From Chloroflexota bacterium (GTDB taxonomy: Bacteria > Chloroflexota > Dormibacteria > Aeolococcales > Aeolococcaceae), in the NCBI GenBank assembly GCA_034666465.1, contig JAXDLT010000416.1, positions 1 to 57,935 of the forward strand: a stretch of 57,935 nt of DNA, written 5' to 3'. Shown one piece after another: positions 34,057 through 57,935 of the stretch. The notes beneath the pieces are model-generated. The model worked only from the letters and a program-made list of their open reading frames with translations, made no database searches and was not told the DNA's origin. Position 1 is the first letter of the stretch, and the number at the start of each line of letters is the position of its first letter. The position numbers were made by a program, and so were the translations under genes.

Positions 34057-34135
34057 AGGGCGAGATTGCTCCACGCGAATCGATCGGACGGCTCGGACGC
34101 CAGGTGCGCGCCTGCGGATACAGTAATAGCTCTCA

Positions 34136-35020: not shown

Positions 35021-35913
35021 CAGGCGGTGGACCAGCGGCGGCGCGAGATCGCGAGCACGCGGCAGCCGGCCCGCACGGCGACGTAGCCGCCGAAGGCGAG
35101 GGTGGTCACGAAGAACCCCATGGGGTAGACGGTGAAGTAGGCCACGGCCATGCCCACCCAGGTGACCGCCAGGGCGATGGCCACGGAGAGGGCGATCCCG
35201 CGTGCGGGACGGGCGGTGACCAGCTGCGCGGTCGCCGCGGGAGTGACCAGCAGGGCGAAGACCAGAAGGCTGCCCGTGATCTGGCTGACCGCGGCGACGG
35301 CGAGGCCGAGCAGCAGCAGGAAGAGCGTGGAGAGCCCGCCCACCCGCACCCCCCGCGCCGCCGCCGCCTCCGCGTCGACCGAGGCGAAGAGCAGCGGGCG
35401 CCCCACCGCGAAGAGCACGCCGAGGGCGAGCGCGGCGGTCAGCAGCAGCGCGGCGACGTCGCCCTCGGTCACGCCCACCAGGGTGCCGAACAGGCGCTGG
35501 GTGACCCCGTCGAGGAGACCGCCGTAGAGGCCGATGAACAGGAAGCCCAGCGCCTGCGCCACCGCCTGCACCGAGCCGATCACCGCGGAATCGGCCTGCC
35601 GCTCTCCGGTCGCCGATCGCGAGAGCCCTGCGATTCCCAGGGCCGCGAGCATGCAGAACGCCACCAGTCCGAACAGCGGAGCGACGCCGACCAGCACCGC
35701 GCCCGCGGCGCCGGGGAAGCCGACCACTGAGAGAGTGTGGGCGGAGAAGCTCTCGCCCCGCAACACCACCAACCAGCCGAGGATGCCGGCGAGCACGGCG
35801 ACGATGGTCCCCGCCATCAGAGCGTTGCGCATGAAGGGAAACTCGAGGAGCAGGCGCACGTCCTCGACGAGGTCGAACGACAGGTGCGGATCGAACGTGT
35901 CGGCGATGCCCAC
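35020..35913 (-). CDS. metal ABC transporter permease (second subunit)
   Basis: FMRNALMAGTIVAVLAGILGWLVVLRGESFSAHTLS..., ABC-3 family. GTG start 5 nt after the ATPase stop. Confidence 0.9.
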   Translation of the reverse strand: MGIADTFDPHLSFDLVEDVRLLLEFPFMRNALMAGTIVAVLAGILGWLVVLRGESFSAHTLSVVGFPGAAGAVLVGVAPLFGLVAFCMLAALGIAGLSRSATGERQADSAVIGSVQAVAQALGFLFIGLYGGLLDGVTQRLFGTLVGVTEGDVAALLLTAALALGVLFAVGRPLLFASVDAEAAAARGVRVGGLSTLFLLLLGLAVAAVSQITGSLLVFALLVTPAATAQLVTARPARGIALSVAIALAVTWVGMAVAYFTVYPMGFFVTTLAFGGYVAVRAGCRVLAISRRRWSTA

Positions 35914-35918
35914 CTCCG

Positions 35919-36824
35919 TCAGCGGGTCCGGGGGGCCGATGGCGCGTCCGGCTGGCCGACGACGACGAGCCGTCCGTCGCTGGTCTGCAGGACCTCGACC
36001 GGCGCGCCGTACAGGCGCGTGAGCGTCTCCGTCGCCACCACTTCCTGGGGCCGGCCGATGAGCGCCCGGCCGGCGGCGACGTAGAGGACGCGGTCGAGGT
36101 AGGGGAGGATGGGATTGACATCGTGGGCGACGAGCAGGACGGTCACCCCCTGCTCGCGACAGACGCCGTGCACCAGGGTGGACACCGCCTGCTGGTTGGC
36201 CATGTCGAGGCTGTCGAGCGGCTCGTCGAGGAGAAGAAGCCGCGGGCGGCTCACCAGCGCCTGCGCGATGAGGATGCGCTGCTGCTCGCCGCCGCTCAGC
36301 TCGCCCACCGGCCGGTCGACATAGGCGCCGGCCCCCACCAGCTCGACGACCTCGTCGACGCGCTGCTCGAGCCGTCGCCCCGCCCCTGATGGCAACAGCC
36401 GGTCGAGGAGCGGGAGGGGCGTCCCCCAGCGCGTGCCGTCGGCCCCGAGACGGACGATGTCGCGGGCGCGGATGCGCAGGTCGCGGTCGAAGCTGCGGCG
36501 TTGGGGCAGGTAGCCGATACCCCGGTTGCGCTCCCCCGGAGCCCGGCCCAGGACCCGGACCGCGCCGGTGCTGACCGGCACCAGGCCGAGCAGCACCCGC
36601 ACGAGCGTGGACTTGCCCGCTCCGTTGGGCCCGAGCACCGCGACGAAGTCTCCCTGCGCGACCGACAGGTTGACCTCACGCCAGATCTCCCGGCCGCCGA
36701 GGCGGACGCCGGCTGCCTCGAGCACCACCGCGGCGGCCTCGGTCAGGCGGCCATCCGCCGCCGCGGCGGTGCCGCCGCGCGGCGCGCGGGCGACGACCTC
36801 CACCCGCACCTCGACGGCGCTCAC
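35919..36824 (-). CDS. metal ABC transporter ATP-binding protein (ZnuC-like)
   Basis: GTG at 36824 overlaps the SBP stop (GTGA). Walker A GPNGAGKST, LSGGEQQR, LLLDEP. Confidence 0.9.
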   Translation of the reverse strand: MSAVEVRVEVVARAPRGGTAAAADGRLTEAAAVVLEAAGVRLGGREIWREVNLSVAQGDFVAVLGPNGAGKSTLVRVLLGLVPVSTGAVRVLGRAPGERNRGIGYLPQRRSFDRDLRIRARDIVRLGADGTRWGTPLPLLDRLLPSGAGRRLEQRVDEVVELVGAGAYVDRPVGELSGGEQQRILIAQALVSRPRLLLLDEPLDSLDMANQQAVSTLVHGVCREQGVTVLLVAHDVNPILPYLDRVLYVAAGRALIGRPQEVVATETLTRLYGAPVEVLQTSDGRLVVVGQPDAPSAPRTR

Positions 36825-37811: not shown

Positions 37812-38192
37812 GCGGGTGTCTCGCGGGGTGGGTAGCATGCGCCGTCCACACCACATGCCGACGACCTGGAGCTGCCGATGACCCGCCCGACAGCCACCCC
37901 ATCCAACGGGCCGAGGCCCGTTGGGCCTGCAGGTCAGCTCGCCGGCACCTCCGCCCGTGGTCGCCGACTTCTGGGCCGCGGTCAACGCCGCCACGATCGG
38001 CTGACGCCACCTGATGGGCGCCCCCGCCTGCCGGGCATCGACAGAACCGACGAGATTCACGCCGCGGCATCGCCGTGTGACCGGCGAACCTAGTCAGGTC
38101 CGGCGATGACAGGGCGGTCCCGTCGCCCATAGGGTAACGATCACAGGGGGCGCAGCCGCCATTCGCCGATTGCCCCGTGCGGAGGAGCAAGG

Positions 38193-39836
38193 ATGGCAGC
38201 CTCTCATCTCACGCGGACGCCGTTGACGCGCTCCGAGTCGGACGGGCGGGGCAGCGACGTCGACACCCGACAGATCAGGCGCATCGAGCCGCGCATGAGC
38301 GTCCGCACCATGATGCGGCAGGCCGTCACCTTCAACGCCCGCCGTCCGGCGATCATCACCGAGGATCGAACGTTCACCTTCACCGAGGCATGGGACCGGG
38401 GGGTGCGCCTGGCCAACGGCCTGCGCGCTCTCGGCATGAAGCCCGGCGAGAGGGTTGCCGGCGTCCAGGACAACAACCTGGGTGCGTCCGACTTCCTCAT
38501 CGGCTGCGCCGTCGCCGGCCTGGTGCGCGTACCCCTCTACCCGCGCAACTCCGGCGAGGCGCACGCCCAGATGCTCGCGGGCACGCAGTGCCGCCTCCTG
38601 CTCGCCGACGAGGCGTACGCCGACAGCGTCCATGGCCTCGAGCGCGACATCCGGGGACTCGACCACATCCACATCCGGGACAGTGGATACGAGGAATGGC
38701 TCGCGACCCAGGATCCCACCGATCCGGATGTCGCGATCTCGGGCGACGACTGGTACGTGATCCGCCATGCAGCCGGCACGACGGGAGGCTCGAGGGGCGT
38801 GGGGTACACGAACCACGACTGGTTGGTCTGCTGCCGGAACTGGGTCTATTCGCTGCCACGCCTGACCCGGCTCAGCGCCGTCGGCCACGCCGGTCCGATC
38901 TCCCACGCCTCGGGGTACCTCTTCGTCCCCGGGTGGCTGCACGGCGCGGTCAACGTGCTGTTCGGGCCGTTCGATCCGGGCAGGGTGCTCTCCATGATGG
39001 AGGAGCACCGCATCAGCCACATGTGGGCGGTGCCCACCATGCTGCATGCGCTGGCACACCACCCCGCCGCCGACCGGCGGGACTGGTCGCACCTCCGGGC
39101 GATCCTGGTCGGCGGCGCGCCGATCACCGACGCGACCGCGCTTGCTGCTCACCGCGTGTTCGGTGACACGCTTCACCACATCTTCGGCCAGATCGAGGCC
39201 GTGCCGTTGACGATGATGGGTCCGGACGAGTGGTTCGGCGCAGTCGACGGTTCGGTCCCGATGCGGTCGGCCGGGCGCGTCCTCCCCTATGTCGAGCTGC
39301 AGATCCGCGGCGAGGACGGGAGCACCGTCCTTCCGCACGGATCGGAGGGCGAGATCTACGTGCGGTGCGAGGCGCAGATGCGCGAATTCTGGGGGGACGA
39401 GGAGCTGACGCGATCACGTCTCGTCGACGGCTGGGTGCGGACGGGCGACATCGGCAGGCTGGATGGCAACGGCTACCTCTACGTCCTCGACAGGGCCGAC
39501 GACGTGATCGTCTCCGGTGGCTTCACCATCTGGCCGGTCGAGGTCGAGGCGGTGATCGCCGACCATCCGGCGGTGATCGAGGTCGTGGTCTTCGCGATCC
39601 CGGACGACCGCTGGGGAGAGACCCCGATGGCGCTGTGCCGCGTCGCCGAGGACGCCTCGGTGGAGGCTGAGGAGATCATCGATCTCTGCAGCATGCGCCT
39701 CGGGTCGTACAGGAAGCCGTCCCGTGTGGCCTTCACCACCGAGCCGCTGCTCAGGAGCGTCGTCGGCAAGCTTCAGCGCAAGGCGCTGCGCGAGCCGTAC
39801 TGGGCCGGGAAGGAGCGTCGGGTCGCGGGGGCCTGA
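38193..39836 (+). CDS. AMP-dependent acyl-CoA synthetase/ligase
   Basis: Adenylate-forming motifs IRHAAGTTGGSRG, GEIYV, TGDIG, and C-terminal GKLQRKALRE. The start may be ATG 38295 (MSVRTMMRQAV). Confidence 0.9.
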   Translation: MAASHLTRTPLTRSESDGRGSDVDTRQIRRIEPRMSVRTMMRQAVTFNARRPAIITEDRTFTFTEAWDRGVRLANGLRALGMKPGERVAGVQDNNLGASDFLIGCAVAGLVRVPLYPRNSGEAHAQMLAGTQCRLLLADEAYADSVHGLERDIRGLDHIHIRDSGYEEWLATQDPTDPDVAISGDDWYVIRHAAGTTGGSRGVGYTNHDWLVCCRNWVYSLPRLTRLSAVGHAGPISHASGYLFVPGWLHGAVNVLFGPFDPGRVLSMMEEHRISHMWAVPTMLHALAHHPAADRRDWSHLRAILVGGAPITDATALAAHRVFGDTLHHIFGQIEAVPLTMMGPDEWFGAVDGSVPMRSAGRVLPYVELQIRGEDGSTVLPHGSEGEIYVRCEAQMREFWGDEELTRSRLVDGWVRTGDIGRLDGNGYLYVLDRADDVIVSGGFTIWPVEVEAVIADHPAVIEVVVFAIPDDRWGETPMALCRVAEDASVEAEEIIDLCSMRLGSYRKPSRVAFTTEPLLRSVVGKLQRKALREPYWAGKERRVAGA

Positions 39837-45881: not shown

Positions 45882-46029
45882 AGACACCGCCGCGCGCTGC
45901 GTGCCCTCGGCGAGGACGTCCTAGGTCCGTCGCTCCCCGAGGGCGACACTGTCACCCAGCCTGAATCGGGGTGAAGTCTGATCCCGGACCGGGACGAGCA
46001 CATCACGCGATCGACCAGTTCCGGACCCG

Positions 46030-46320
46030 TCAGCGCCCGAAGCCTGCGGTCGCGCCGCGTCCGCCGCCGGCGCCGCGTCCTATCGCCCGAAGCAGGCCGA
46101 GCAGGATGCAGGCGCCGAGGAAGGCGACGATGCACTCGCCGACGAAGCTTCCGGCCACGTCGCTGCGGGTGATCGCGTGGAGGATCAGCCCGCCGATGAA
46201 GGCCCCCACCAGTCCCACGACGACGTCGCCGAGGAAGCCGAAGCCGCTGCCCTCGACGACCCGCCCCGCGAGTGCGCCGGCGATGAGTCCCACGAGAAGC
46301 CAGGCGATCAGGTGAGCCAT
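46030..46320 (-). CDS. GlsB/YeaQ/YmgE-family stress membrane protein
   Basis: MAHLIAWLLVGLIAGALAGRVV.. then GDVVVGLVGAFIGG. Three TM helices, Gly-rich basic tail, 96 aa. Confidence 0.85.
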   Translation of the reverse strand: MAHLIAWLLVGLIAGALAGRVVEGSGFGFLGDVVVGLVGAFIGGLILHAITRSDVAGSFVGECIVAFLGACILLGLLRAIGRGAGGGRGATAGFGR

Positions 46321-46408
46321 GGTCGTGCCCTCTACAGGTGTCTGTGTGCCTCCAGCGTGACCGGAGTCGCCAGACGGGCACATCACGCGAGTTGGTGGTT
46401 GGGACGCC

Positions 46409-48055
46409 CTATGCGCCGATATCCTTGCGCGTGAACCGGAACGCACCCAGGCCCAATGCCAGCGCGCTGACCGCCAGGACGCCCACGACCGAGGTCAGCC
46501 GCAGGCCGTGCACCAGCGGCGTGCCGTAGTAGTAGAACGCCGAGAGCCGCAGCGTCGCACCGGGCCACCTGAGCTCCGGGCCGATGAAGCTGATGAAGAA
46601 CCAGATCAGCAGCACGAGGCTGAGCAGCCCGGTGTCGGCCGCCGTGCGCAGCCAGCCCGACGCCAGGTAGCCGATGGCGGCGGTCAGCAGCCCCAGCGGG
46701 ATCATCCCCAGGGTCGCCGCCGCCAGGTGGCCCGGGTCGAGCGTCAGGCCGGTGGCCGCGGCGGCCCCGGCTGAGGCGGCAAGTGTGGTCACGCCGATGA
46801 TCACGGTCGCCGAGGCGAGCGCGGCGAAGCGACCCAGGAGCACCCGCAGCCGTGACTGCGGCGCTGCCAGGACCAGCTCGAGGCGGCCGTTCTGCTCGTC
46901 CGCGGACCAGCGGGCGACCTGGGTGACGGCGAAGGCCATCAGGAAGAGCGGCAGGAGGCCGAACAGTGCGCTGAGGAAGCCGGCGTCGAGGCTGGCGCCT
47001 CCGCCGCCCAGGTCCCTGATCAGCGTCTGCATGGTCGACCCGGCGAGGAGGCTGCTCAGCCTCGTCTCCATCTGCTGGACGGCGACCACCATCCAGGCGG
47101 CGGAGCCGGCGATGCCCAGGGTCCACCAGACGGCCGGCATCGCGATCATGCCCAGGCTGCGCGTGTAGACCGAGCGCAGCGACCAGTCTCCGACCGGCAG
47201 CGCTCGGATGGAGGTGCGACCGCGCTCCGGCAGCCGCAGCCAGCGCGGCAGCGCCACCGTCCCGCCCACGTCGCGGCGGGCGAAGAGGCGCACCGCCGCC
47301 GCGCTCGAGGCCAGGGCGAGGCCGAGCAGGAGGAGCATCGCGCCGGCGTTGGCGCCGTGGCCGGGGACCAGGGGCTTGCTCAGGTTGTAGTAGTAGACGG
47401 GGGAGATGCGCGAGATCCACTCCGTGTCGGGAATGACGCGATGGACCATGTCCAGGACGATGGCGACCAGCAGCACGCCCGACGTCACGCCCGCCGCGGT
47501 GCTCCGCTCCCGGGTGAACTGCGAGATCAGAAGAGCCAGGCCGCCGAGCACGGCGCAGACCAGGGCGAGGTTCAGCCCGAAGAGGAGCGCGTCGCCGAGG
47601 CCGAAGTCGCCGCCGAACCTCCGGCCGCCCGCGAACGCCAGCAGCGCGATCAGCAGGCCCATGCTCAGCAGCGCGGTCCACATCGCGGCCAGCTTCTCGA
47701 GCACCACCTGCGTCCGCCGCTGCGGAAGCGAGAGCAGCATGTCGAGCGAGCCGCGCTCCTCCTCACCTCGCAGCATGCGGCTGGCGGCGAGGATGGGCCA
47801 GAGCGTGATGAGGAGGATGAAGACGCCGATCTTGAAGGTCGCGTACCCGCCGATGGTGTCGACCGCGACCACGTCGGCGTTCCAGGCGAACGTGTTGGCC
47901 AGGCCGATCAGCTGCTCCCGCGCCTGCGGGGTCGTGAGCAGTGTGCCCACGCTCGCCATCGGCGAGACCACCACCAGGCCCATCCCGATGCCCCAGCCCA
48001 GGATGGCGACGCGGTGGTCGTGGAGGGACTTCAGAAAGACGTTCCTACGCCACAT
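46409..48055 (-). CDS. large ABC-2-type transporter permease (duplicated 6-TM, about 12 TM)
   Basis: 548 aa and strongly hydrophobic throughout. The ATG at 48055 overlaps the ATPase stop by 11 nt. Confidence 0.8.
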   Translation of the reverse strand: MWRRNVFLKSLHDHRVAILGWGIGMGLVVVSPMASVGTLLTTPQAREQLIGLANTFAWNADVVAVDTIGGYATFKIGVFILLITLWPILAASRMLRGEEERGSLDMLLSLPQRRTQVVLEKLAAMWTALLSMGLLIALLAFAGGRRFGGDFGLGDALLFGLNLALVCAVLGGLALLISQFTRERSTAAGVTSGVLLVAIVLDMVHRVIPDTEWISRISPVYYYNLSKPLVPGHGANAGAMLLLLGLALASSAAAVRLFARRDVGGTVALPRWLRLPERGRTSIRALPVGDWSLRSVYTRSLGMIAMPAVWWTLGIAGSAAWMVVAVQQMETRLSSLLAGSTMQTLIRDLGGGGASLDAGFLSALFGLLPLFLMAFAVTQVARWSADEQNGRLELVLAAPQSRLRVLLGRFAALASATVIIGVTTLAASAGAAAATGLTLDPGHLAAATLGMIPLGLLTAAIGYLASGWLRTAADTGLLSLVLLIWFFISFIGPELRWPGATLRLSAFYYYGTPLVHGLRLTSVVGVLAVSALALGLGAFRFTRKDIGA

Positions 48056-48971
48056 CCCGGGCCTCCCTGGCACGCAGGCCGTCGCCCTCGTAGTAGCGCA
48101 GGAAGATGTCCTCCAGGCTCGGCTCGTGACTGCTGAGCGAGACCACCGGGTAGTGGGCCGCCGCCTTGATCACCGCGTCCGGCGCGCCCTGCATCGCGAT
48201 CCTCAGCGCACGGCCGCCGGCCACCTCCTCGATCCCGGCCACGCCGTCCAGGGTCGCGAACGCCGCGGCGGGAACGGCGGCGCCGAACGTGATGGTGATC
48301 TCGTACCGCTTGATGTCCTTGATCTCCGCCATGCCACCGACCCGCACGAGGCGGCCGTCGCGGATGATGCCCACCCGGCTGCAGAGGTGCTCGACCTCGC
48401 CGAGGACGTGGGAGGAGAGGAAGACGGTGCTGCCCCCCTCGCGCGCCTCGTGCACCATCCGGGCGAACTCCTGCTGGATCAGCGGGTCGAGCCCGTTGGT
48501 CGGCTCGTCGAGGATGAGCAGGCGCGGGCGGTGCATGAACGCCTGGACGAGCACCACCTTGCGCCTGTTGCCGGTGGAGTACTGGCGGAACTTCCTCCCG
48601 GTGTCGAGGTCGAGCCGCTCGATCAGCCTCCGGAGATGCGCCTGGTCGACACCGCCGCGCAGGTGGGCGAAGTACTCGAGGATCTGCCCACCGGTCAGGT
48701 CGGGGTCGAGAGCGGATTCGCCCGGTGCGTAGCCGGTCAGGCGTTTCACCTCGAGCGACTGCTCCCAGCAGTCGAGCCCCGCGATCCGCGCGGTGCCGGC
48801 GTCGGCGCGCAGCAGGGCCATGAGCACCCGGATGGTGGTCGTCTTGCCGGCGCCGTTCGGGCCCAGGAAGCCGAAGACCTCGCCCTCCTCCACCCGGAGT
48901 GAGACGCCGTCGATGCCGCGTGTCCCGCCGTAGCTCTTGGTGAGCCCTTCCGCGTCGATGATCGCTGCCAT
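48045..48971 (-). CDS. ABC transporter ATP-binding protein
   Basis: ATG at 48971 after GAGGAGAG. Walker A GPNGAGKTTT, YSTGNRRKV, LILDEPT. Confidence 0.9.
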   Translation of the reverse strand: MAAIIDAEGLTKSYGGTRGIDGVSLRVEEGEVFGFLGPNGAGKTTTIRVLMALLRADAGTARIAGLDCWEQSLEVKRLTGYAPGESALDPDLTGGQILEYFAHLRGGVDQAHLRRLIERLDLDTGRKFRQYSTGNRRKVVLVQAFMHRPRLLILDEPTNGLDPLIQQEFARMVHEAREGGSTVFLSSHVLGEVEHLCSRVGIIRDGRLVRVGGMAEIKDIKRYEITITFGAAVPAAAFATLDGVAGIEEVAGGRALRIAMQGAPDAVIKAAAHYPVVSLSSHEPSLEDIFLRYYEGDGLRAREARDVA

Positions 48972-48985
48972 CGGTGTGTCTCTCC

Positions 48986-49669
48986 TCAGTCGAACCAGAA
49001 CCGCAGGGTGGTCTCGTCCGTGAGGGTGACCGAACCGGCGGAGACCCCCAGGATCCGTTCGAATGCCTCGGTGAAGGCCGCGTGGGTTCGCTGCACGACC
49101 TCGAAGGTGACGGTGCCGGCCCGGCGGCCGATGAGGTGCTCGAGGGCCACCTGCTGGTAGCCCTGGAGGAGGCACACGAGGATCGTCGCCGTCTCGCCGG
49201 GGGAGGCGGCGGTGATCACGCCCTCATCGACACCCTGCATGATGACCGCGGACAGGAGTGGCTGCAGGCGGGTCCCGGACATGCGCCGGACCTTCTCCCG
49301 GACGATCGCGTTGCCGTCCGAGTTCCACACCTCCACGATCGCCAGGGTCAGCTCCCTCTGCTGGGCCTTCCATCGAGCGATGGCGCCGAAGACCCTCTCC
49401 AGCTTCCGCAGCGCGGGCAGGTCCGGGTCGGCCAGGACGGGGGCGACGGCCACCATCGCGCCGTCGGCGAAACGGTCGACCACGGCTTCGAGGAGCGCCT
49501 GCTTGGAGTCGAAGTAGTGGTAGAAGGCTCCCCTGGAGGTGGTGAGCGCGTCCAGGACGTCCTGGATGCTCATCTGCTCGTAGCCCTTGGTCTGGATGAG
49601 GCGCTGGGCGACATCGAGGAACGCCTCCCGGCGCACCCGGTGAGCCGCCACGTCGACCGTTCTCGGCAT
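48986..49669 (-). CDS. TetR/AcrR-family transcriptional regulator
   Basis: N-terminal TetR HTH (REAFLDVAQRLIQTKGYEQMSIQDVLDALTTSRGAFYHYFDSKQAL). Lies 14 nt upstream of the ABC ATPase gene. Confidence 0.9.
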   Translation of the reverse strand: MPRTVDVAAHRVRREAFLDVAQRLIQTKGYEQMSIQDVLDALTTSRGAFYHYFDSKQALLEAVVDRFADGAMVAVAPVLADPDLPALRKLERVFGAIARWKAQQRELTLAIVEVWNSDGNAIVREKVRRMSGTRLQPLLSAVIMQGVDEGVITAASPGETATILVCLLQGYQQVALEHLIGRRAGTVTFEVVQRTHAAFTEAFERILGVSAGSVTLTDETTLRFWFD

Positions 49670-49683
49670 GCGGCTAATAATAA

Positions 49684-49696
49684 ACCGATCGTCGGT
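49684..49696. promoter_or_regulatory. palindrome ACCGA-tcg-TCGGT, candidate TetR operator
   Basis: Seen 15 nt upstream of the TetR start inside an unusually AT-rich stretch (ctaataataaaccgatcgtcggtctatgtataga). Confidence 0.35.
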
Positions 49697-49797
49697 CTAT
49701 GTATAGATCGAACGGCCGGCGACCACGGCCAGTTCGGCATGGTCGACGCTCACCCTGGCCTTCGGACAATGTGAGGAATCACATCTTTGCGCAAACG

Positions 49798-49827
49798 TTG
49801 ACAGCCATGTTCAGGTCCCGTTAAGCT
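49798..49827 (+). promoter_or_regulatory. near-consensus sigma-70-type promoter TTGACA-17/18-TAAGCT facing the biosynthetic cluster
   Basis: TTGACAgccatgttcaggtcccgtTAAGCT read directly. It would give a 5' leader of about 320 nt before the sbnA-like ATG. Confidence 0.35.
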
Positions 49828-50156
49828 GCTGGCCATCAGGAAGGAACGCGCTGAGTGGCGCGCATCAGGGTGATAGAGAGCATGAGTTGTTGCTCCGTCG
49901 GTGTGCTTCTGGTCGGGTTGGCGTGACGAGCGACGCTCCCTGCCGCACCCGGAAAGTCTGCCGTGCCATACACGTGATCGGATTCAGCAGGCTGAAGGCC
50001 CAATCCTCACGTTGTCACAGCGGACGGCACAAACAGACGTCGCAGTGGTGGAATGGGACGACGGGTTGACGAATCGACAAGCGCCAACCCGGAGAGGGTG
50101 GTCGACGGACGTGACAACCAGCCGCGGCCGAGTGCTCTGCTGCAGATGAGGAGGCC

Positions 50157-51158
50157 ATGGTGACAGTCATATCCGCTCCCCAGAGCTTCACCGAGGAGGA
50201 TCTCTACGTCGACCTCCGGGCGATTTTCGGGCACGCGCTCTTCCTGAAATGCGAGGGCTTCAACTTCGCCGGCTCCATCAAGCTGAAGGTCGCGACCGAG
50301 ATGGTGGAGGCCGCCGAGCGGGACGGGGTCCTGATACCGGAGTCGATCCTGGTCGAGTCCTCCTCCGGAAACCTCGGCGTGGCGCTCAGCATGCTCGCCG
50401 CGAGCAAGGGCTACCGTTTCCTGTGTGTGACGGACGCCCGCTGCAACCTGCAGACCAGGCGGCTGATGGAGGCGCTGGGCAGCCAGGTGCACGTCATCGC
50501 CGAGCCGGACGCCGTCGGCGGCCTCCTCGGCGCGCGGCTCGACTTCGTCCGCGCGCTGTGCGCCTCCGACCGTCGGTACGTGTGGCTCGATCAGTACACC
50601 AATCCGGGCAACTGGGAGGCGCACCACCGCAGGACCGCGCCGGCGATCGCTCGCCAGTTCCCGCGACTGGACGTGCTGTTCGTCGGCGCCGGCACCACCG
50701 GGACCCTGATGGGCTGCGCGCGGTACTTCCGGGCGTGGCACCGGCAGGTGCGGATCGTCGCCGTCGACACCGTCGGCTCGGTCACCTTCGGTGGTGCGCC
50801 CAGCCGCCGGATGATTCCCGGCCTGGGTGCGGGCGTCCGCCCGCCGCTGCTCGACGAGTCCTTCGTGGACGAGGTCGTCCTCGTCGAGGAGCAGGACACG
50901 ATCCGCGCCTGCCATCGTCTGGCCCGACGCGGATTCCTCTTCGGCGGCTCCACCGGCACGGTGGTCAGCGGCGCGATGGACTGGTTGGCCGGGCACGACG
51001 CGCGTGAGCTCACCACGGTGGCCATCGCCCCGGACCTCGGCGACCGCTACCTCGACACCGTCTACCAGCCCAGCTGGGTGGAGGGGCTCTACGGCGAGCA
51101 CGTGCTCGGGTCCCAGGAGCTGACCGGCAAGGCGGCGTCCCGCTCCCGGGCAGCCTGA
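50157..51158 (+). CDS. sbnA: SbnA-like PLP-dependent enzyme (cysteine-synthase fold; N-(2-amino-2-carboxyethyl)-L-glutamate synthase, L-Dap pathway)
   Basis: ATG after GAGGAGG. Collinear by eye with S. aureus SbnA as I recall it: LFLKCEGFNFAGSIKLK (PLP Lys), ESSSGNLG, DQYTNPGNWEAH, GAGTTGT, IPGLGAG, FGGSTG, PDLGDRYLDTVY. Confidence 0.8.
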   Translation: MVTVISAPQSFTEEDLYVDLRAIFGHALFLKCEGFNFAGSIKLKVATEMVEAAERDGVLIPESILVESSSGNLGVALSMLAASKGYRFLCVTDARCNLQTRRLMEALGSQVHVIAEPDAVGGLLGARLDFVRALCASDRRYVWLDQYTNPGNWEAHHRRTAPAIARQFPRLDVLFVGAGTTGTLMGCARYFRAWHRQVRIVAVDTVGSVTFGGAPSRRMIPGLGAGVRPPLLDESFVDEVVLVEEQDTIRACHRLARRGFLFGGSTGTVVSGAMDWLAGHDARELTTVAIAPDLGDRYLDTVYQPSWVEGLYGEHVLGSQELTGKAASRSRAA

Positions 51159-51185
51159 CAGGCGCCACCGGTTCGAGGAGTCCAC

Positions 51186-54071
51186 GTGGTGAGAAAGTCT
51201 GTCGAGGCCTCGACCGTCGCTCTGGCTGAACCTCCGACCGACCGGGGTCGGGGCGCCGGCCCGGAGACCGGCCTCAGGAGGATCCTCGCCGATGTGCTGG
51301 CTGACATCGTGCACGAGGTCCTGGCAGGCGATCTGGCCGTACCGGCGACCACTCCCCCGGACACGGACGCCGGTGCGACGACCGCCACCGAGAGGATCCT
51401 CGCCGAGGTGTTCGCCGACATCATGCGCGTCGAGCACGTGCCGGTCGACGGCCACTTCTTCGACGACCTCGGTGCTGACTCCCTGGTGATGGCCCGGTTC
51501 TGCGCGCGGGTCAGGAAGCGGGCGGACCTCCCCTCGGCGTCGATGAAGGACATCTACCGGCACCCGACGATCAGACGTCTGGCCACGGCGCTCGCGGACG
51601 CCGCGCCCGCCCCTGTCGAGAATCCTCTCGAGACGATGCTCGCCGAGGTGTTCTCCGGCATCATGCGCGTCGAGCACGTGTCGGTCGACGGCCACTTCTT
51701 CGACGACCTCGGTGCTGATTCCCTGGTGATGGCCCGATTCTGCGCGCGGGTCAGGAAGCGGGCGGACCTCCCCTCGGTGTCGATGAAGGACGTCTACCGG
51801 CACCCGACGATCAGGCGCCTGGCGACGGCGCTCGCGGGCACCGCGCCCACCCCCGTCAGGTCGCCGATCGCGGCATCGGTCGAGGTGGCGGCACCGGCCG
51901 GCGGGCTGGAGTACGTCCTCTGTGGGACGCTGCAGCTCCTCTCCTTCGTCGGGTATGCGTGCGCCGTCGCACTTGTCCTGAGCCGAGGATACGACTGGAT
52001 CTCCGCCGGGTCGGACCTGATCGGCATCTACCTGCGGGCGGTCGTCTTCGGCGGCGCGACCCTCCTCGGCATGTGCACCGTTCCCATCCTGGCGAAGTGG
52101 ATGCTCATCGGTCGGTGGAAGCCCGGGGAGATCCGCATCTGGAGCCTGGCGTATGTCCGCTTCTGGATCGTCAGGACGCTGATCCGGTCGAACCCGCTGC
52201 TCCTCATGTTCGTCGGGTCGCCGCTCTACGTGCTCTACCTGCGAGCGCTGGGCGCGAAGGTCGGACGAGGCGTCGCGATCTTCTCCAGGACGGTGCCCGT
52301 GTGCACCGACCTGCTCACCATCGGCGACGGCACGGTCATCCGCAAGCAGTCGTTCTTCACCGGCTACCGGGCGCACGCCGGTCGGATCCAGACGGGTGCG
52401 GTCACCATCGGAAGAGACGTGCTCATCGGCGAGAGGACCGTGCTCGACATCAACACGTCACTGGGCGATCGGGCCCAGCTCGGCCATGCCTCCGCTCTGT
52501 ACGCCGGGCAGGCCGTGCCCGAGTGCGAGCGCTGGCACGGGTCGCCGGCGCAGCGGACCGAGGTCGACTACCGCTCGGTCGATCCGGCCCGCTGCGGCAC
52601 CCTGCGCCGGGCCCTCTACAGCGTCAACCAGCTGATGCTGCTGCTCGCTGTCTACATGCCGCTGACCATCGGCGTCGTGGGCGTCCTGTTCGACGGCGTC
52701 CCGCGTCTCAGCCCCCTCCTGAACCCGGGGCCCGAGGATTTCACGAGGTGGGCGTTCTACGGCGACGTCCTGGCCGTCTCCCTCGCGCTTTTCCTCGGCG
52801 CGGTGCTCGTCCGCCTCCTCCTCGTGGTCACGGTTCCTCGCCTGCTCAACCTCGCCATCGAGCCGGGCAAGGTCTATCGCCTGTATGGCTTCCACTACTC
52901 CGTCCACCGGGCGATCGCGCGCATGACCAATCTCAGGTTCTTCCCCTATCTCTTCGGCGACAGCTCCTACATCGTTCACTATCTGCGGTGCCTCGGGTAC
53001 GACCTCTCCCGGGTCGAGCAGACCGGGTCGAACTTCGGCACGGTGGTGGCGCACGACACGCCGTACCTGAGCTCTGTCGGCCGTGGAACGATGATCGCCG
53101 ACGGGCTGTCGATCATCAATGCCGACTTCTCGAGCACGTCCTTCCGCGTGACCCGGGTGTCGATCGGGGCACACAACTTCCTGGGGAACGGCATCGCCTA
53201 TCCGTCGCAGGGCAGGACGGGCGACAACTGCCTCCTCGCGACGAAGGTGATGGTCCCCGTCGACGGGGCGATCCGGGAGGGTGTCGGGCTCCTGGGCTCG
53301 CCCAGCTTCGAGATTCCGCGATCGGTCGCGCGTGACAGCCGGTTACTGAGGGGCGGGGACGAGCTGCGCCGCCGCCTCACCGCCAAGAACCGGTACAACC
53401 TCCGCACCATGGGCCTGGCCCTCCTGGTGCGGTGCATCCACTTCTTCGGGATCGTGCTGCTGACCATGGCGATGGCGGCTTCCCACCCGCGGTTCGGCTG
53501 GGAGGCGGTCGCCATGGAGATGCTCCTCACCCCGCTGTACACCGAAGCCTACTTCGTGCTGATCCAGCGCGGCGCCACGCGGTTCCGGCCTCTGCGTCCA
53601 CAGGAATGCTCGATCTACGACCCCTACTTCTGGTGGCACGAACGCTACTGGAAGCTCGTGATCACCGGTGGCCTGGACCGGGCGTTGAGCGGCACACCGT
53701 TCAAGAACGTCGTCTCACGGCTGCTGGGAGTACGCCTCGGCAGACGGGTCTTCGACGACGGCTGCGACATCCCGGAGAGGACTCTCGCCACCATCGGTGA
53801 CGACTGCACGCTGAACGCGGGGAGCTCGATCCAGTGCCACTCGCAGGAGGACGGAGCCTTCAAGTCCGACCGGACCACGATCGGCACCAGCTGCACCATC
53901 GGGATCGGCGCTCTCGTCCACTACGGCGTGACCATGGGCGACGGCGCGGTGCTCGCCCCCGACTCCTTCCTCATGAAGGGAGAGGAGGTCCCGGCGCACG
54001 CGCGGTGGGGGGGCAACCCTGCCGGGGAGATTCGGGAGGACAGGGATCAGCCGGCGGCCATCAGGTGGTGA
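51186..54071 (+). CDS. Pls/PosA-type membrane homopoly(amino acid) synthetase lacking an A domain: PCP-PCP-[2TM + LbH-like domain]x3
   Basis: GTG start 27 nt after the sbnA-like stop. It has two PCPs (FFDDLGADSLVMARFCARVRK, twice). Three units follow of two TM helices plus a hexapeptide-repeat-like soluble domain (..TIGDGTVIRK.., ..SIGAHNFLGNG.., ..TIGDDCTLNAGSSIQCHSQEDG..GNPAGEI). This matches the C-terminal architecture described for epsilon-poly-lysine synthetase. No AMP-binding motifs are present. Confidence 0.8.
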   Translation: MVRKSVEASTVALAEPPTDRGRGAGPETGLRRILADVLADIVHEVLAGDLAVPATTPPDTDAGATTATERILAEVFADIMRVEHVPVDGHFFDDLGADSLVMARFCARVRKRADLPSASMKDIYRHPTIRRLATALADAAPAPVENPLETMLAEVFSGIMRVEHVSVDGHFFDDLGADSLVMARFCARVRKRADLPSVSMKDVYRHPTIRRLATALAGTAPTPVRSPIAASVEVAAPAGGLEYVLCGTLQLLSFVGYACAVALVLSRGYDWISAGSDLIGIYLRAVVFGGATLLGMCTVPILAKWMLIGRWKPGEIRIWSLAYVRFWIVRTLIRSNPLLLMFVGSPLYVLYLRALGAKVGRGVAIFSRTVPVCTDLLTIGDGTVIRKQSFFTGYRAHAGRIQTGAVTIGRDVLIGERTVLDINTSLGDRAQLGHASALYAGQAVPECERWHGSPAQRTEVDYRSVDPARCGTLRRALYSVNQLMLLLAVYMPLTIGVVGVLFDGVPRLSPLLNPGPEDFTRWAFYGDVLAVSLALFLGAVLVRLLLVVTVPRLLNLAIEPGKVYRLYGFHYSVHRAIARMTNLRFFPYLFGDSSYIVHYLRCLGYDLSRVEQTGSNFGTVVAHDTPYLSSVGRGTMIADGLSIINADFSSTSFRVTRVSIGAHNFLGNGIAYPSQGRTGDNCLLATKVMVPVDGAIREGVGLLGSPSFEIPRSVARDSRLLRGGDELRRRLTAKNRYNLRTMGLALLVRCIHFFGIVLLTMAMAASHPRFGWEAVAMEMLLTPLYTEAYFVLIQRGATRFRPLRPQECSIYDPYFWWHERYWKLVITGGLDRALSGTPFKNVVSRLLGVRLGRRVFDDGCDIPERTLATIGDDCTLNAGSSIQCHSQEDGAFKSDRTTIGTSCTIGIGALVHYGVTMGDGAVLAPDSFLMKGEEVPAHARWGGNPAGEIREDRDQPAAIRW
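51399..51878 (+). repeat. tandem direct duplication, 2 x 240 bp, encoding the two PCP domains (plus a about 45-nt partial third copy at 51279..51325)
   Basis: Offset is exactly 240 nt. I counted 13 mismatches and no indels across 51401-51610 versus 51641-51850. Confidence 0.9.
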
Positions 54072-54160
54072 GCGGTCTGTCGCGATCGTCATGGCCACCG
54101 CGGCGCCGGCCCGGACAGCGCGAACAGCACCGTGGCAGCGGTGAGTGGAAGGAGGAATCG

Positions 54161-56758
54161 ATGGAGATGCCAGTGGAAGCCGGCCGGGAGTTCTGGCTGG
54201 GTGTGCTCGGCGCCGGCGGGTTCACCGCGATCCCGCGGTGGACGCTCGAGCCGGTGACGGGCGTCGCCGCGCACGAGACGACGATCCCCGACGACCTGGT
54301 CGCCGGGTTGCGCCGGCTGGCGGGCGAGCTGGCCATGCCGTTCAGCTCGGTGCTGCTGGCCGCGCACGCCAAGGTGCTCGCCGCGCTGTCCGGCGAGCAC
54401 GAGGTCACGACCGGCCACCTCGCCGCGGAGGGCGGCCGGCCGTTGCCCTGCCGGCTCACGATCGGACCCGGCTCGTGGCGTGCGCTGCTGCTGGACACCC
54501 ACCGGGTCGAGAGAGCGCTGCTGTCGTACAGCACCGTCCCGGTCGACGCCCTCAGGCGCGAGCTGGGCCTGACCGGACCCTCGTTCGAGACCGTGTTCGC
54601 TCCGACCGGTGCCGGTGGCGATCTCGCCGAGGGCACCGTCCTGTGGGTGGGGACCCCACCGCGGGGCGGCCGACTCGCCCTTCAGCTGCGGTACCGCGCC
54701 GACGTGCTCGACGCGGAGTCCGCCGCCAGGATCGCCGGCTATCACCTGACCGCGCTCGCGCTGATCGCCGCCGATCCGGAGGCCGAGCACGGGCGGCAGA
54801 GCCTGCTCTCCTCCGGGGAGCTCCACGTCCAGCTCGACGGGCTCGCCGGACCGCGCCGCGAGCTGCCGGATCGCCGGTTTCACGAGCTGTTCGAGCAGCG
54901 GGTGGGGACCCACCCGGACGCCGTCGCCGCCGTGCACGGCGACCGGCGATGGACCTACCGGGAGCTCAACGTCCGTGCCAACCGGCTGGGACGAGCCCTG
55001 TTGGCGCGGGGGCTGCGCCGCGAAGGTGTCGTCGCGGTGGTGACCGAGCGCAACCTGGACTGGATGGCCGCCGTCCTCGCGGTCTTCAAGGCCGGGGGCG
55101 TGTACCTGCCCATCGAGCCGCATCTCCCGGCGGATCGCATCGCGACCACGCTCTCCCGTGCCGCGTGCGGGTTGGTGCTGACCGAGCCCGGCAGCACCAC
55201 CATGCTCGACCAGGCCCTCAGGTCGCTGTCCGGGGTCCGGACGCTCCTCGTCGACACGGCCTACGAGGAGGACCATGCCGGCGGTGATCTCGGCGTCGGT
55301 GTCGCGCCGGACCAGCTCGCCTACATCTACTTCACGTCCGGCTCCACCGGGGAGCCCAAGGGCGCGATGTGCGAGCACGCGGGCATGCTCAACCACCTCT
55401 ACGCCAAGATCGACGACCTGGAGATCGGCGAGGGGCAGGTGGTCGCCCAGACCGCACCGCAGTGCTTCGACATCTCGCTGTGGCAGCTGGTGTCCGCGCT
55501 CCTGGTCGGTGGGCGGACCCTGCTGGTCGAGCAGGAGGTGATCCTGGATGTCCAGCGGTTCGTCGACAGGATCGTCGGCGGCCGGGTCGCCGTCCTCCAG
55601 GTGGTGCCGTCGTACCTCGAGGTCGTCCTGTCCCATCTGGAGCAGCACCCCCGCGAGCTGCCGGACCTGCGCTGCGTGTCGGTCACCGGCGAGGCGCTGA
55701 GGCACGAGCTCACGCAGCGGTGGTTCGCGGCCGAGCCCGGGATCACGCTGGTCAACGCGTACGGGCTGACCGAGACGTCCGACGACACCAATCATGAGGT
55801 CATGACCCGGGTGCCGGACACAGAACGGGTCCCGCTCGGTCGCCCCGTCAACAACGTGCACGTCTATGTGGTCGACGAACACCTGTCCCCGGTGCCGCTC
55901 GGCGCCCCCGGTGAGATCGTCTTCTCCGGGGTCTGCGTCGGCCGCGGGTATGTCAACGACCCTGAGCGCACCCGGCTGGCCTTCATGGCCGATCCGCACC
56001 GCGAGGGCCGGCGGCTCTACCGGGGCGGTGACCACGGCCGCTGGCTGCCCGAGGGCAAGCTGGAGTTCCTCGGCCGCCGGGACACCCAGGTCAAGGTCTC
56101 CGGCTTCCGGATCGAGATCGGCGAGATCGAGAACGCCCTGTCGCGGGTGTCCGGCGTCCGCGACGGTGCGGTGGTGGTCGCCGAGCGAGCGGACCGGAGC
56201 AGGCACCTGGTGGCCTTCTACTCCGGCCGGCGGCCACTCGAGCTCGATGTCCTGCGGGACCGGCTGGGTGAGTCGCTGCCCGAGTACATGGTCCCGTCGG
56301 TATTCCATTGGCGGGAGCATCTGCCGCTGACCGCCAACAGCAAGATCGACAGGAGGACGCTGACTGCGCTCGCCGGAGAGCTCGACGCCGTCGAGCAGGA
56401 CCACCACGCGCCGACCACGCCGACCGAGCGGTGGCTGGCGGCCGCGTGGGCGAAGGTGCTCGGCATCCCGCCGGATCAGATCGGCCGGCGGGACCACTTC
56501 TTCGACCGGGGCGGCACGTCGCTGTCGGCTGTGAGGCTGGTCATCGCCCTCGACCGCGCGGTGTCCCTCCAGGACCTCACCCGTCACCCGGTCCTCGCCA
56601 CTCTGGCGGGGCTGGTCGAGGGCAGGTCCACGCCGTGCTCCGGGCTGCTGCAGTCACTGTCGGAGGCGGACGGTGTGTGCTTCCCCCACGCCGGCGGCAA
56701 TGCGGTGAACGTCCAGCCGATGGCCGGGGCGCTGCGGGCCGGCGGCCTGGCAGTCTAG
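54161..56758 (+). CDS. NRPS: C-terminal half of a condensation domain - A - PCP - about 30-aa thioesterase stub
   Basis: ATG after GGAAGGAGGAA. No HHxxxDG, but C-domain late motifs are present (EFWLGVL.., PFSSVLLAAHAKVLAALSG). A-domain motifs are LAYIYFTSGSTGEPKG, FDISLWQ, NAYGLTE, YRGGDHGRW, GRRDTQVKVSGFRIEIGEIE, SKIDR. PCP motif is FFDRGGTSLSAV. It ends GVCFPHAGGNAVNVQPMAGALRAGGLAV*. Confidence 0.9.
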   Translation: MEMPVEAGREFWLGVLGAGGFTAIPRWTLEPVTGVAAHETTIPDDLVAGLRRLAGELAMPFSSVLLAAHAKVLAALSGEHEVTTGHLAAEGGRPLPCRLTIGPGSWRALLLDTHRVERALLSYSTVPVDALRRELGLTGPSFETVFAPTGAGGDLAEGTVLWVGTPPRGGRLALQLRYRADVLDAESAARIAGYHLTALALIAADPEAEHGRQSLLSSGELHVQLDGLAGPRRELPDRRFHELFEQRVGTHPDAVAAVHGDRRWTYRELNVRANRLGRALLARGLRREGVVAVVTERNLDWMAAVLAVFKAGGVYLPIEPHLPADRIATTLSRAACGLVLTEPGSTTMLDQALRSLSGVRTLLVDTAYEEDHAGGDLGVGVAPDQLAYIYFTSGSTGEPKGAMCEHAGMLNHLYAKIDDLEIGEGQVVAQTAPQCFDISLWQLVSALLVGGRTLLVEQEVILDVQRFVDRIVGGRVAVLQVVPSYLEVVLSHLEQHPRELPDLRCVSVTGEALRHELTQRWFAAEPGITLVNAYGLTETSDDTNHEVMTRVPDTERVPLGRPVNNVHVYVVDEHLSPVPLGAPGEIVFSGVCVGRGYVNDPERTRLAFMADPHREGRRLYRGGDHGRWLPEGKLEFLGRRDTQVKVSGFRIEIGEIENALSRVSGVRDGAVVVAERADRSRHLVAFYSGRRPLELDVLRDRLGESLPEYMVPSVFHWREHLPLTANSKIDRRTLTALAGELDAVEQDHHAPTTPTERWLAAAWAKVLGIPPDQIGRRDHFFDRGGTSLSAVRLVIALDRAVSLQDLTRHPVLATLAGLVEGRSTPCSGLLQSLSEADGVCFPHAGGNAVNVQPMAGALRAGGLAV

Positions 56759-56771
56759 AGAGGAGATCGAG

Positions 56772-57776
56772 ATGTCGCCCCCATCCCCGACGTCGCCGCT
56801 CGACGTGGATCTGCACCCCGGCCGACCTCCGCTGATGCGGGCCGAGGCAACCGGCGACGCGCCCAGATGGGCGGCCGAGCACCGGGATGCGCTGCGCGCC
56901 GTCGTCGCCGAGCACGGTTCGGTCCTGGTCCGTGGCCTCGCGCTGCGCGACGTGGCCGGGATCGGTGCCGTCTTTCAGCGGCTGGCCGGCGGCCTGATGA
57001 CCGAGAAGGAGACCTTCGCGCCCCGGCGCTCCCACTCCGGCGGCGTGTACTCCTCGTCGAAGTGGCCGTCGAACCAGCCGATGTGCATGCACCACGAGCT
57101 GAGCTACACACTCCAGTTTCCCGGCCTGATGCTGTTCGCGTGCCTCGGCGCGCCCAGCCACGGCGGGGCGACCGCGGTGGCCGACTCGACGACCGTGCTC
57201 GACGCGCTGCCCGCCGGGTTGATCACGCGGTTCGAGCGGGAGGGCTGGCTGCTCATCCGCAACTACAACGACGAGATCGGGGCGTCCTTCGCCGAGGCGT
57301 TCGGCACCGAGGACCGTCGCGCCGTCGAGAGCTACTGTCGCGCCCACGCGATCGAGTTCGAGTGGCAACCGGACGGTGGACTGCGCACCCGGCAGCGCCG
57401 CAGCGCGGTGGTGCGCCACCCGGTCACCGGCCGGCGCTGCTGGTTCAACCAGGTCGCATTCCTCAACGAGTGGACGGTCGCCCCCGAGGTGCGTGAGTAC
57501 CTGGTGGACGTCCACGGTGCCGACGGGCTGCCGTTCACCACCCGCTTCGGCAACGGCGACCCGATCGGCGAGGACGTCGTGCAGCTGGTCAACAGTGTCT
57601 ACGACGCCAACACCGCACGTGAGCCGTGGCAGGCCGGCGACCTGATGCTGGTCGACAACATCCGCACCGCGCACAGCAGGGAGCCCTTCGAGGGACCCCG
57701 CGAGGTGCTCGTGGCGATGGCCGGCGCGGTGCGTCTGGCCGACTGCTCGCCGACCGTCGAGGTGACCGCCGGATGA
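56772..57776 (+). CDS. TauD/TfdA-family Fe(II)/2-oxoglutarate dioxygenase (SyrP-like)
   Basis: ATG after AGAGGAGA. HxE facial-triad motif (CMHHELSY), distal His and Arg (DNIRTAHSREPF), about 330 aa as for SyrP/clavaminate-synthase-like hydroxylases. Confidence 0.8.
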   Translation: MSPPSPTSPLDVDLHPGRPPLMRAEATGDAPRWAAEHRDALRAVVAEHGSVLVRGLALRDVAGIGAVFQRLAGGLMTEKETFAPRRSHSGGVYSSSKWPSNQPMCMHHELSYTLQFPGLMLFACLGAPSHGGATAVADSTTVLDALPAGLITRFEREGWLLIRNYNDEIGASFAEAFGTEDRRAVESYCRAHAIEFEWQPDGGLRTRQRRSAVVRHPVTGRRCWFNQVAFLNEWTVAPEVREYLVDVHGADGLPFTTRFGNGDPIGEDVVQLVNSVYDANTAREPWQAGDLMLVDNIRTAHSREPFEGPREVLVAMAGAVRLADCSPTVEVTAG

Positions 57777-57935
57777 CCACCATCTCCTCCACCACGAGGG
57801 AGTCCGCAACGCCCGAGCCGATCACCGTGCCACCGTTCGCGGTGATCTCGGGGGCCCAGGTCGAGCGCGCGCTGCGGGGCCGCGTGAACCAGATCGTCGA
57901 GTTGGTCGAGGCCACCTACCGGCTGCACGGCGCCG
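57773..57935 (+). CDS. sbnB: 5' part of an SbnB-like (ornithine-cyclodeaminase fold) NAD-dependent enzyme, cut by window end
   Basis: The ATG overlaps the dioxygenase stop (ATGA). MTTISSTTRESATPEPITVPPFAVISGAQVERALRGRVNQIVELVEATYRLHGA.. resembles SbnB/VioK-type N-termini as I recall them. Only 54 codons are visible. Confidence 0.5.
   Translation, partial: MTTISSTTRESATPEPITVPPFAVISGAQVERALRGRVNQIVELVEATYRLHGA

Follow-up and report, generated by a model that had tools for sequence, protein, structure and literature searches.

An adenylation-less Pls/PosA-type protein with tandem carrier domains, and a conserved diaminopropionate cassette that may load it in trans

The open reading frame (ORF) at 51186..54071 of a 57,935-nt stretch of DNA from a Chloroflexota bacterium (contig JAXDLT010000416.1 of assembly GCA_034666465.1; here called the window) encodes a Pls/PosA-type nonribosomal peptide synthetase (NRPS) protein without an adenylation (A) domain. 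The 961-aa product, which NCBI lists as a hypothetical protein from the metagenome-assembled genome (MAG) of a 'Chloroflexota bacterium', consists of a carrier remnant, two peptidyl carrier protein (PCP) or thiolation (T) domains, and the C-terminal membrane module of the family, here abbreviated PlsC. From its domains and its conserved gene neighbourhood, we hold with moderate confidence that it is an apparently functional member of the family, and that the surrounding L-2,3-diaminopropionate (Dap) cassette would supply the monomer, load it in trans, polymerise it, and export the product. The gene, its domains, and the gene preceding it are as follows.

50157..51158, + strand: gene for an SbnA-type pyridoxal phosphate enzyme (TIGR03945, 383 bits; cutoff, 350)
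51186..54071, + strand: A-less T-T-PlsC gene, 961 aa, GTG start; carrier remnant, two PCPs, and Pls/PosA polymerising module
51251..51315, + strand: incomplete third PCP copy comprising helix 1 alone; 65-nt direct repeat with 75% identity to the beginning of PCP1
51389..51617, + strand: PCP1 (PP-binding; GADSL, Ser98), first unit of a 240-nt tandem repeat
51629..51857, + strand: PCP2 (PP-binding; GADSL, Ser178), second repeat unit, 93% identical in nucleotides to the first
51906..54068, + strand: Pls/PosA C-terminal module (TIGR02353) in the order transmembrane (TM) helices 1-2, C1, TM3-4, C2, TM5-6, C3; TM hairpins and left-handed β-helix (LbH) acyltransferase fold

Domain structure of the 961-aa protein

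The ORF is closed upstream, as an earlier sequence-only reading of this DNA had held: the TGA stop of the sbnA-like gene lies in the same frame 27 nt before the GTG start (51156-51188), so that upstream extension is impossible. A Shine-Dalgarno-like GAGGAG is found 5-8 nt ahead of the start at 51186, and the 27-nt spacing is identical in L001, the closest locus known to us (84-95% identity; JGI metagenome). The same reading had reported that none of the AMP-binding core motifs occurs in the 961 residues, and this also stands, with no match to AMP-binding (PF00501) or TIGR01733 in Pfam and NCBIfam profile searches, and none of the core motifs A3, A5, A7, A8, and A10 found by regular expressions. 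The protein therefore lacks the N-terminal A domain in the same polypeptide that is a trait of all characterised Pls/PosA members.

The C-terminal part is covered from end to end by TIGR02353 (Pls/PosA NRPS terminal domain), which matches residues 245-946 over profile positions 1-695 of 695 (784 bits; cutoff, 423), and Pfam also sees C-terminal hexapeptide repeats. Hydropathy and an AlphaFold2 model (predicted local distance difference test score, 74.7; predicted TM-score, 0.71) agree on three TM hairpins at about residues 240-308, 472-555, and 724-797, each of which is followed in the model by a β-helix domain; the Pls-like layout of six TM helices and three soluble domains proposed earlier is supported by all three lines of analysis. 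With six TM helices, the PCPs and the three soluble domains are expected to lie on the cytoplasmic side. In Foldseek searches, the β-helix domains match hexapeptide-repeat acyltransferases (maltose O-acetyltransferase, 3hjj; E, 8e-7), and the three tandem domains plausibly form a covalent pseudo-trimer of a normally trimeric enzyme class. No structure of a Pls-type membrane module was found in the PDB, by sequence or by fold. Fifty-nine module residues, including His885, Ser886, and Glu888 in C3, each recur unchanged in 95% or more of 35 family representatives that have an A domain (36-57% identity). The dN/dS ratio against L001 is 0.31 for the T-T-PlsC gene and 0.32 for sbnA, weak evidence given the low divergence and a dS compressed by a G+C content of 90% at third codon positions (GC3). 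The membrane module is apparently functional as judged from these features.

Upstream of the module, PCP1 and PCP2 represent a tandem duplication of 240 nt, both with intact phosphopantetheine (Ppant) serines, and place a thiolation domain directly before the membrane module, as the Pls/PosA family requires. The helix-1 remnant was modelled by AlphaFold2 as an isolated helix (residues 30-45), so that Pfam, repeat analysis, and the structure model together agree with the earlier description of a remnant and two full PCPs, each with the GADSL serine. The same remnant is kept in a 95%-identical orthologue, P0002, which has a single PCP. Among the 110 A-less clusters described below, the number of PCPs is one in 39, two in 35, three in 35, and six in one, and the median identity between PCPs is 0.86 within a protein versus 0.69 between proteins. 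This within-protein likeness and the single-PCP orthologue show that copy number changes quickly, through unequal recombination or conversion, and is untied to chemistry.

Spread of the A-less architecture

Proteins with the T-T-TIGR02353 architecture lacking PF00501, which the sequence-only reading had proposed to look for, are readily found among the relatives: the A domain is absent in 110 of the 120 closest homologue clusters (54-84% identity), so that the rarity of the architecture had been overestimated, the A-less form being the majority state in the clade. Of the ten clusters with an A domain, six have one that is truncated after about 300 residues; such decayed cis A domains in close relatives show that a cis A domain is dispensable. 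Across the family more widely, the membrane module is matched at E ≤ 1e-30 by 854 representatives of a library with 50%-identity clusters; the 79 full-length ones have a complete A domain in 40 cases, a partial one in four, and none in 35. Many homologues are labelled 'Pls/PosA family non-ribosomal peptide synthetase' by PGAP. The architecture recurs in independent isolate genomes, including complete chromosomes (NZ_CP108256.1, NZ_CP109330.1, and NZ_CP108365.1), and the A-less form in the window is for that reason not a misassembly. On these comparisons, the window gene is a typical representative of a subfamily that is large, conserved, and apparently uncharacterised. In a neighbour-joining tree, unrooted and with neither support values nor an outgroup, the members with an A domain occur at scattered positions, which no more than suggests that the domain was lost repeatedly and independently.

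Some homologues are extended at the C terminus by a pair of peptidoglycan-binding domains (PF01471), by TPR repeats, or by a class-III aminotransferase (P0005, which is locus L005 of Pseudonocardia nigra; P0095/P0121; and P0129). A peptidoglycan-binding domain placed after the cytoplasmic C3 would need an extra membrane crossing.

The Dap cassette and its adenylation domain

A genome scan with one genome per species gave at least 582 related loci, and cassette composition was examined in the best 80. In about 62 of these, the T(n)-PlsC gene (n, number of T domains) stands together with genes for a C*-A-T protein with or without a thioesterase (TE) domain, where C* is the C-terminal half of a condensation domain, for a TauD-family oxygenase, and for SbnB and SbnA, the L-Dap pathway pair. 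The hosts include many Streptomyces, Pseudonocardia, Actinomadura, Amycolatopsis, Geodermatophilus, and Blastococcus, a Micromonosporaceae MAG, and a Dictyobacter MAG (L044). The cassette is operon-like and is conserved across Actinomycetota. Its order in the window is sbnA, T-T-plsC, C*-A-T, tauD, and sbnB, with the window ending inside sbnB, so that SbnB is represented only by its first 53 residues; L001 adds a full SbnB (TIGR03944, 421 bits; cutoff, 327) and an Npt/PptT-like phosphopantetheinyl transferase. Six orphan T(n)-PlsC genes (L002, L007, L030, L050, L053, and L077) mostly have three PCPs and are accompanied by no A domain, TauD, or SbnA/SbnB gene within 10 kb. The genes downstream of T-T-plsC in the window are as follows, the first four rows being parts of the gene at 54161..56758 (+ strand), which comprises C*, A, T, and a thioesterase stub.

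54161..54865, + strand: C*, C-terminal half of a condensation domain (weak Pfam Condensation match, profile 398-451; HHxxxDG absent)
54881..56380, + strand: adenylation domain, code DIWQSTADDK, predicted to be specific for L-Dap (AMP-binding, 6.5e-78; TIGR01733, 384 bits)
56429..56614, + strand: T domain of the C*-A-T protein (PP-binding, 8e-10, aa 757-818; GGTSL serine motif)
56642..56758, + strand: thioesterase stub of about 35 aa (…CFPHAGG…) followed by a stop, seen in the translation; L017 has a complete Thioesterase here
56772..57776, + strand: TauD/TfdA-family Fe(II)/2-oxoglutarate oxygenase (Pfam TauD, 3e-44; HxE…H triad intact)
57773..57935, + strand: 5' end of sbnB, 163 nt, first 53 aa (tblastn, 88% identity to SbnB of L001)

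The specificity code of the A domain was taken by alignment, for which a GrsA control returned DAWTIAAICK. The code DIWQSTADDK is identical in all 60 complete orthologues and also in three fusion proteins of 55-66% identity. It fits the 'mode 3' signature D-[V/I]-W-[E/Q]-x-x-A-D-D-K with Asp at positions 8 and 9, known from the sulfazecin A domain SulM-A3, which has been crystallised with L-Dap and has the code DVWEMNADDK; in homologues of SulM-A3, position 2 is Ile and position 4 often Gln, and mode 3 is reported from no other known biosynthetic gene cluster (BGC) (PMC12042044). Positions 1, 3, 7, 8, 9, and 10 (D-W-A-D-D-K) are identical between SulM-A3 and the window A domain, which has Ile for Val at position 2 and Gln for Glu at position 4, the swaps reported in the SulM-A3 homologues; positions 5 and 6 differ (Met and Asn versus Ser and Thr). 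SulM-A3 belongs to a monobactam NRPS of Pseudomonadota, whereas the window A domain is found in a Pls-type cassette. Because this SulM-A3-like code occurs together with SbnA and SbnB, the neighbouring A domain likely activates L-Dap.

The sequence-only reading had named only the A domain of this gene, as the loader of the 961-aa protein, which understates it: the product is a truncated-C-A-T protein with its own Ppant serine and a TE stub, adjoined by TauD, and probably has a role of its own. In the L017 orthologue, C* matches a different part of the Condensation profile (190-278; weak match). Most orthologues have a complete TE, with about 18 of 62 cassettes lacking it as judged from the A-to-TauD spacing. 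The tauD gene is conserved in the main cassette and in a sister cassette described below. Searches for an informative TauD relative matched only At3g21360 and an unnamed TauD/TfdA protein, 9yut, among PDB sequences, and no NCBIfam equivalog.

Evidence for loading in trans

Loading of the T-T-PlsC carriers in trans by the neighbouring A domain, which the sequence-only reading had inferred, is the best-supported mechanism, as judged from the following comparisons. This A domain is the only one of the amino-acid type in the window, and in about 62 of the 80 loci its gene accompanies that of the A-less polymerase in synteny. Physical fusions are also found: P0144 (2309 aa) joins T-PlsC-C*-A-T-TE-TauD in one polypeptide, P0177 (1983 aa, several contigs) has T-PlsC-A-T-TE, and P0125 has T-PlsC-A. 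Two Streptomyces and one Amycolatopsis (L015 9965-15771, L039, and L059) have a sister cassette made up of T(n)-PlsC, TauD, and a stand-alone A protein of 581 aa with the code DASVATMRSK and no PP-binding domain; this cassette has neither sbnA nor sbnB and probably handles a different monomer. As its stand-alone A has no carrier, the PCPs of the sister-cassette PlsC protein are the only carriers available to it. The truncated cis A domains of close relatives also speak for loading in trans, as they show a cis A to be dispensable. A biochemical precedent exists in CmnA-A1, which loads L-Dap on its own T domain and, in trans, on the A-less CmnI (PMC12400406). The window has the CmnI/VioI-type arrangement, in which one cluster encodes both a carrier that lacks a cis A domain and a partner whose A domain has a T of its own. 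Another AMP-binding gene of the window, the stand-alone 38133..39836, was discarded as a possible loader, since it is non-syntenic and its code, HAYWLGIPLK, is devoid of the α-amino-binding Asp.

The neighbouring A domain does not derive from detachment of the Pls A domain. In four cassettes (L004, L019, L021, and L047), a cis A domain precedes the PCPs and the C*-A-T neighbour is still present, which indicates that the neighbour A is of a different lineage; those cis A domains have codes such as DFESLSVVxK, which begin with D-F-E as do those of the poly(L-diaminopropionic acid) (PDAP) and PDAB synthetases and have the Glu of 'mode 1' at position 3. The earlier description of a 'split iterative system' is accordingly not upheld, since these four cassettes with a PDAP-type cis A keep the neighbour, and the A-less state of the window gene is best read as loss of a cis A domain rather than its detachment. 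As the neighbour A has coexisted with a cis A, its T, the TE, and TauD probably have their own role in priming, modification, or release.

Proposed mechanism and alternatives

In the mechanism we favour, SbnA and SbnB would make L-Dap, with SbnA performing the first step, as their family membership suggests. The single A domain of the cassette, on the C*-A-T protein, would activate L-Dap, to which its invariant SulM-A3-like code points, and would load its own T domain and, in trans, the PCPs of the membrane protein, for which synteny, the fusions, the sister cassette, and the CmnA-A1/CmnI precedent argue. The six-TM, three-β-helix pseudo-trimeric acyltransferase module would tether the two cytoplasmic carriers, whose copy number, one to six in relatives, may tune donor supply without defining the chemistry. 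By homology with Pls, C1-C3 would allow the side-chain amine of the acceptor to attack the PCP-bound thioester, and repeated attack would give a β-isopeptide-linked oligo- or poly-Dap for export. TauD, the neighbour T, and, in most orthologues, TE may modify, prime, or release the product, which is the least certain step.

Several observations weigh against this mechanism. The four or five cassettes with a cis A domain suggest that the primary job of the neighbour may be other than loading the polymerase; having a T of its own, in most cases a TE, and an oxygenase as partner, the neighbour resembles an A-T-TE pathway complete in itself. No A domain is encoded within 10 kb of about 10 of the 80 related A-less genes, which are orphans in this sense, and somewhere in the family the carriers are loaded by an unlinked A domain or through a different donor route. 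C3-hydroxylated Dap would be an unstable hemiaminal, which leaves TauD without an obvious role in a simple poly-Dap pathway. Loading, polymerisation, and product are, moreover, all inferred.

It is tentatively possible that the cassette represents a widespread, undescribed class of assembly line that builds poly-amino acids from carrier to carrier. In it, the Dap A domain would load both its own T and the PCPs, the Pls-type module would extend the chain, and the chain would be primed, modified by the oxygenase, and, in cassettes with a TE, released on the partner, giving a new Dap-derived and possibly oxidised oligomer or polymer. We regard as doubtful a scheme of two separate carrier systems, according to which C*-A-T(-TE) and TauD produce a modified Dap unit of their own, whether as primer or acceptor, as cap, or as an unrelated small molecule, and the PCPs are loaded by an A domain encoded elsewhere. 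The neighbour's own T, the TE of most orthologues, its retention beside a PDAP-type cis A, and the orphan A-less PlsC genes all agree with such a separation, as does the genome of Pseudonocardia sp. CA-142604, in which an A-less paralogue (P0018) occurs beside one with an A domain (P0117). However, no other A domain is present within 10 kb in about 57 of the 62 cassettes, T-PlsC is physically fused to the neighbour-type A protein in three protein clusters, and the carrier-less A of the sister cassette can load only the PCPs of PlsC.

That the 961-aa protein is a membrane aminoacyl transferase, moving one PCP-bound residue to a lipid, an envelope component, or a T-bound intermediate on the partner, seems improbable. 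The fold of its soluble domains is that of single-transfer LbH acyltransferases, some homologues have the C-terminal peptidoglycan-binding, TPR, or aminotransferase domains mentioned above, and orphan copies occur without biosynthetic neighbours; but TIGR02353 is matched over its full length with 784 bits, the residues of canonical A-T-PlsC proteins are kept, every characterised member of the family is a polymerase (PMC10522769, PMC4668381), and a dedicated Dap supply and an exporter fit a secreted polymer. A decayed, nonfunctional relic of a PDAP-type synthetase, or loss of its A domain by misassembly, is hardly credible and largely refuted: the truncated A domains of relatives show that decay occurs, and the neighbour TE is cut to a stub in the window, but the A-less form predominates, with no fewer than 110 clusters, and occurs in dozens of isolate genomes, some of them as complete chromosomes, the ORF is intact with its serines and catalytic-region residues conserved and a dN/dS equal to that of sbnA, and sbnA abuts it with the same 27-nt gap in the window and in L001.

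Flanking genes and genomic context

Upstream of the cassette, L001 shares genes for a TetR regulator and for a putative DrrAB-like exporter, consisting of a DrrA-like ABC ATPase and an ABC-2 permease. These genes are located in the window as follows.

46409..48073, - strand: ABC-2 type permease, putative exporter of the cassette (Pfam ABC2_membrane_2, 3e-28; syntenic with L001, 95% identity)
48045..48989, - strand: DrrA-like ABC ATPase, approximate start (Pfam ABC_tran, 7e-24, and DrrA1-3_C; same position in L001)
48986..49669, - strand: TetR-family regulator, divergent from sbnA (Pfam TetR_N, 8e-15)

Promoter-like hexamer pairs are found on both strands at 49653-49705 in the spacer between the TetR gene and sbnA, and no terminator-like sites within 49500-57935. 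A 65-aa ORF lies upstream of sbnA in L001; it was not detectable in the window, has no family match, and is not MbtH-like. Two large LuxR-family AAA/TPR (LAL-type) regulators are encoded at 41108-44023 and 21669-24533, and one such regulator also flanks the L001 cassette.

The closest named relatives of the cassette are from Pseudonocardiaceae (65-71% identity), and the window, of about 70% G+C, is on a contig labelled as a Chloroflexota MAG; mis-binning or horizontal transfer of the DNA is possible. Chloroflexota also has the cassette elsewhere, in the Dictyobacter MAG. An 18/36-nt tandem repeat at 14243-14453 (about 11.7 copies, 75-78% matches) and a 24-nt repeat at 8105-8168 (2.7 copies) are probably coding low-complexity repeats. 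AT skew is unusually high at 34001-36000 (0.31) and 46001-48000 (0.21) relative to the rest of the window, and the former segment holds no ORF passing the GC3 filter.

Significance

The characterised Pls/PosA-type synthetases are those for ε-polylysine, poly-Dap, poly-Dab, and poly-ornithine. Substrate prediction for cationic polymers reads the cis A domain, so that A-less enzymes and their products are invisible to such mining, and most members of one large clade have no cis A and rely on a conserved partner cassette. Dozens of Streptomyces, Pseudonocardia, Actinomadura, and Amycolatopsis strains that can be cultivated carry the cassette, so that its chemistry is directly testable. If trans-loading is true, it would provide a modular way to feed other monomers to Pls-type polymerases and would exemplify in nature how a peptide polymerase can be tuned by its number of carriers. 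If, in addition, the chain is processed on the partner in the manner of an assembly line, the system would be the first trans-loaded Pls/PosA member and the second BGC class with a mode-3 Dap pocket, and its product would be made by many Streptomyces and Pseudonocardia species.

Comparison with known systems

The characterised Pls, PDAPs, PDAB synthetases, and PosA are all A-T-membrane-module proteins (PMC4668381, PMC10522769), and Streptomyces albulus also uses SbnA/SbnB-type Dap genes (PMC4668381), which in strain PD-1 are reported not to be near pdaps. No description of A-less Pls/PosA proteins or of the cassette was found in the papers on PosA, PDAP, SulM, capreomycin, and Pls of Corynebacterium or in other full-text literature, in whose coverage subscription papers are mostly not included; proteomics of S. 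scabies only mentions an uncharacterised sbnA/sbnB/NRPS locus.

The window protein shares with PDAPs of S. albulus PD-1, Pls, PosA, and the PDAB synthetases the TIGR02353 module and the T domain upstream of it. With PDAPs it also has the diamino-acid (Dap) context in common, and rare cassette orthologues keep a cis A of the D-F-E type of the PDAP and PDAB synthetases. Unlike PDAPs, Pls, and PosA, it lacks the A domain and has its PCPs in tandem; its gene is also accompanied, within one cassette, by genes for a separate C*-A-T(-TE) protein and a TauD oxygenase, and the neighbour A has Asp at code positions 8 and 9, whereas PDAP-type A domains have Glu at position 3. Having every Pls/PosA-defining feature that was tested except a cis A, the window protein would work as Pls-type synthetases do and is a distinct architectural variant of the family.

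CmnI/VioI and CmnA-A1 of the capreomycin and viomycin NRPSs resemble the arrangement predicted for the window in that a carrier without a cis A receives L-Dap from an A domain that also serves its own T. CmnI is, however, a soluble T-C module of a linear multimodular NRPS, whereas the window protein is membrane-bound and of the iterative type, and the code class of CmnA-A1 differs from that of the neighbour A. Tandem acyl or peptidyl carrier protein arrays, as in polyunsaturated fatty acid synthases, consist of near-identical carriers whose copy number varies between orthologues. The PCPs of the window are alike in being near-identical tandem carriers that vary in number among orthologues, consistent with a dosage or flux role; those arrays belong to polyketide and fatty-acid systems, whereas the window PCPs would hold aminoacyl donors for a Pls-type module.

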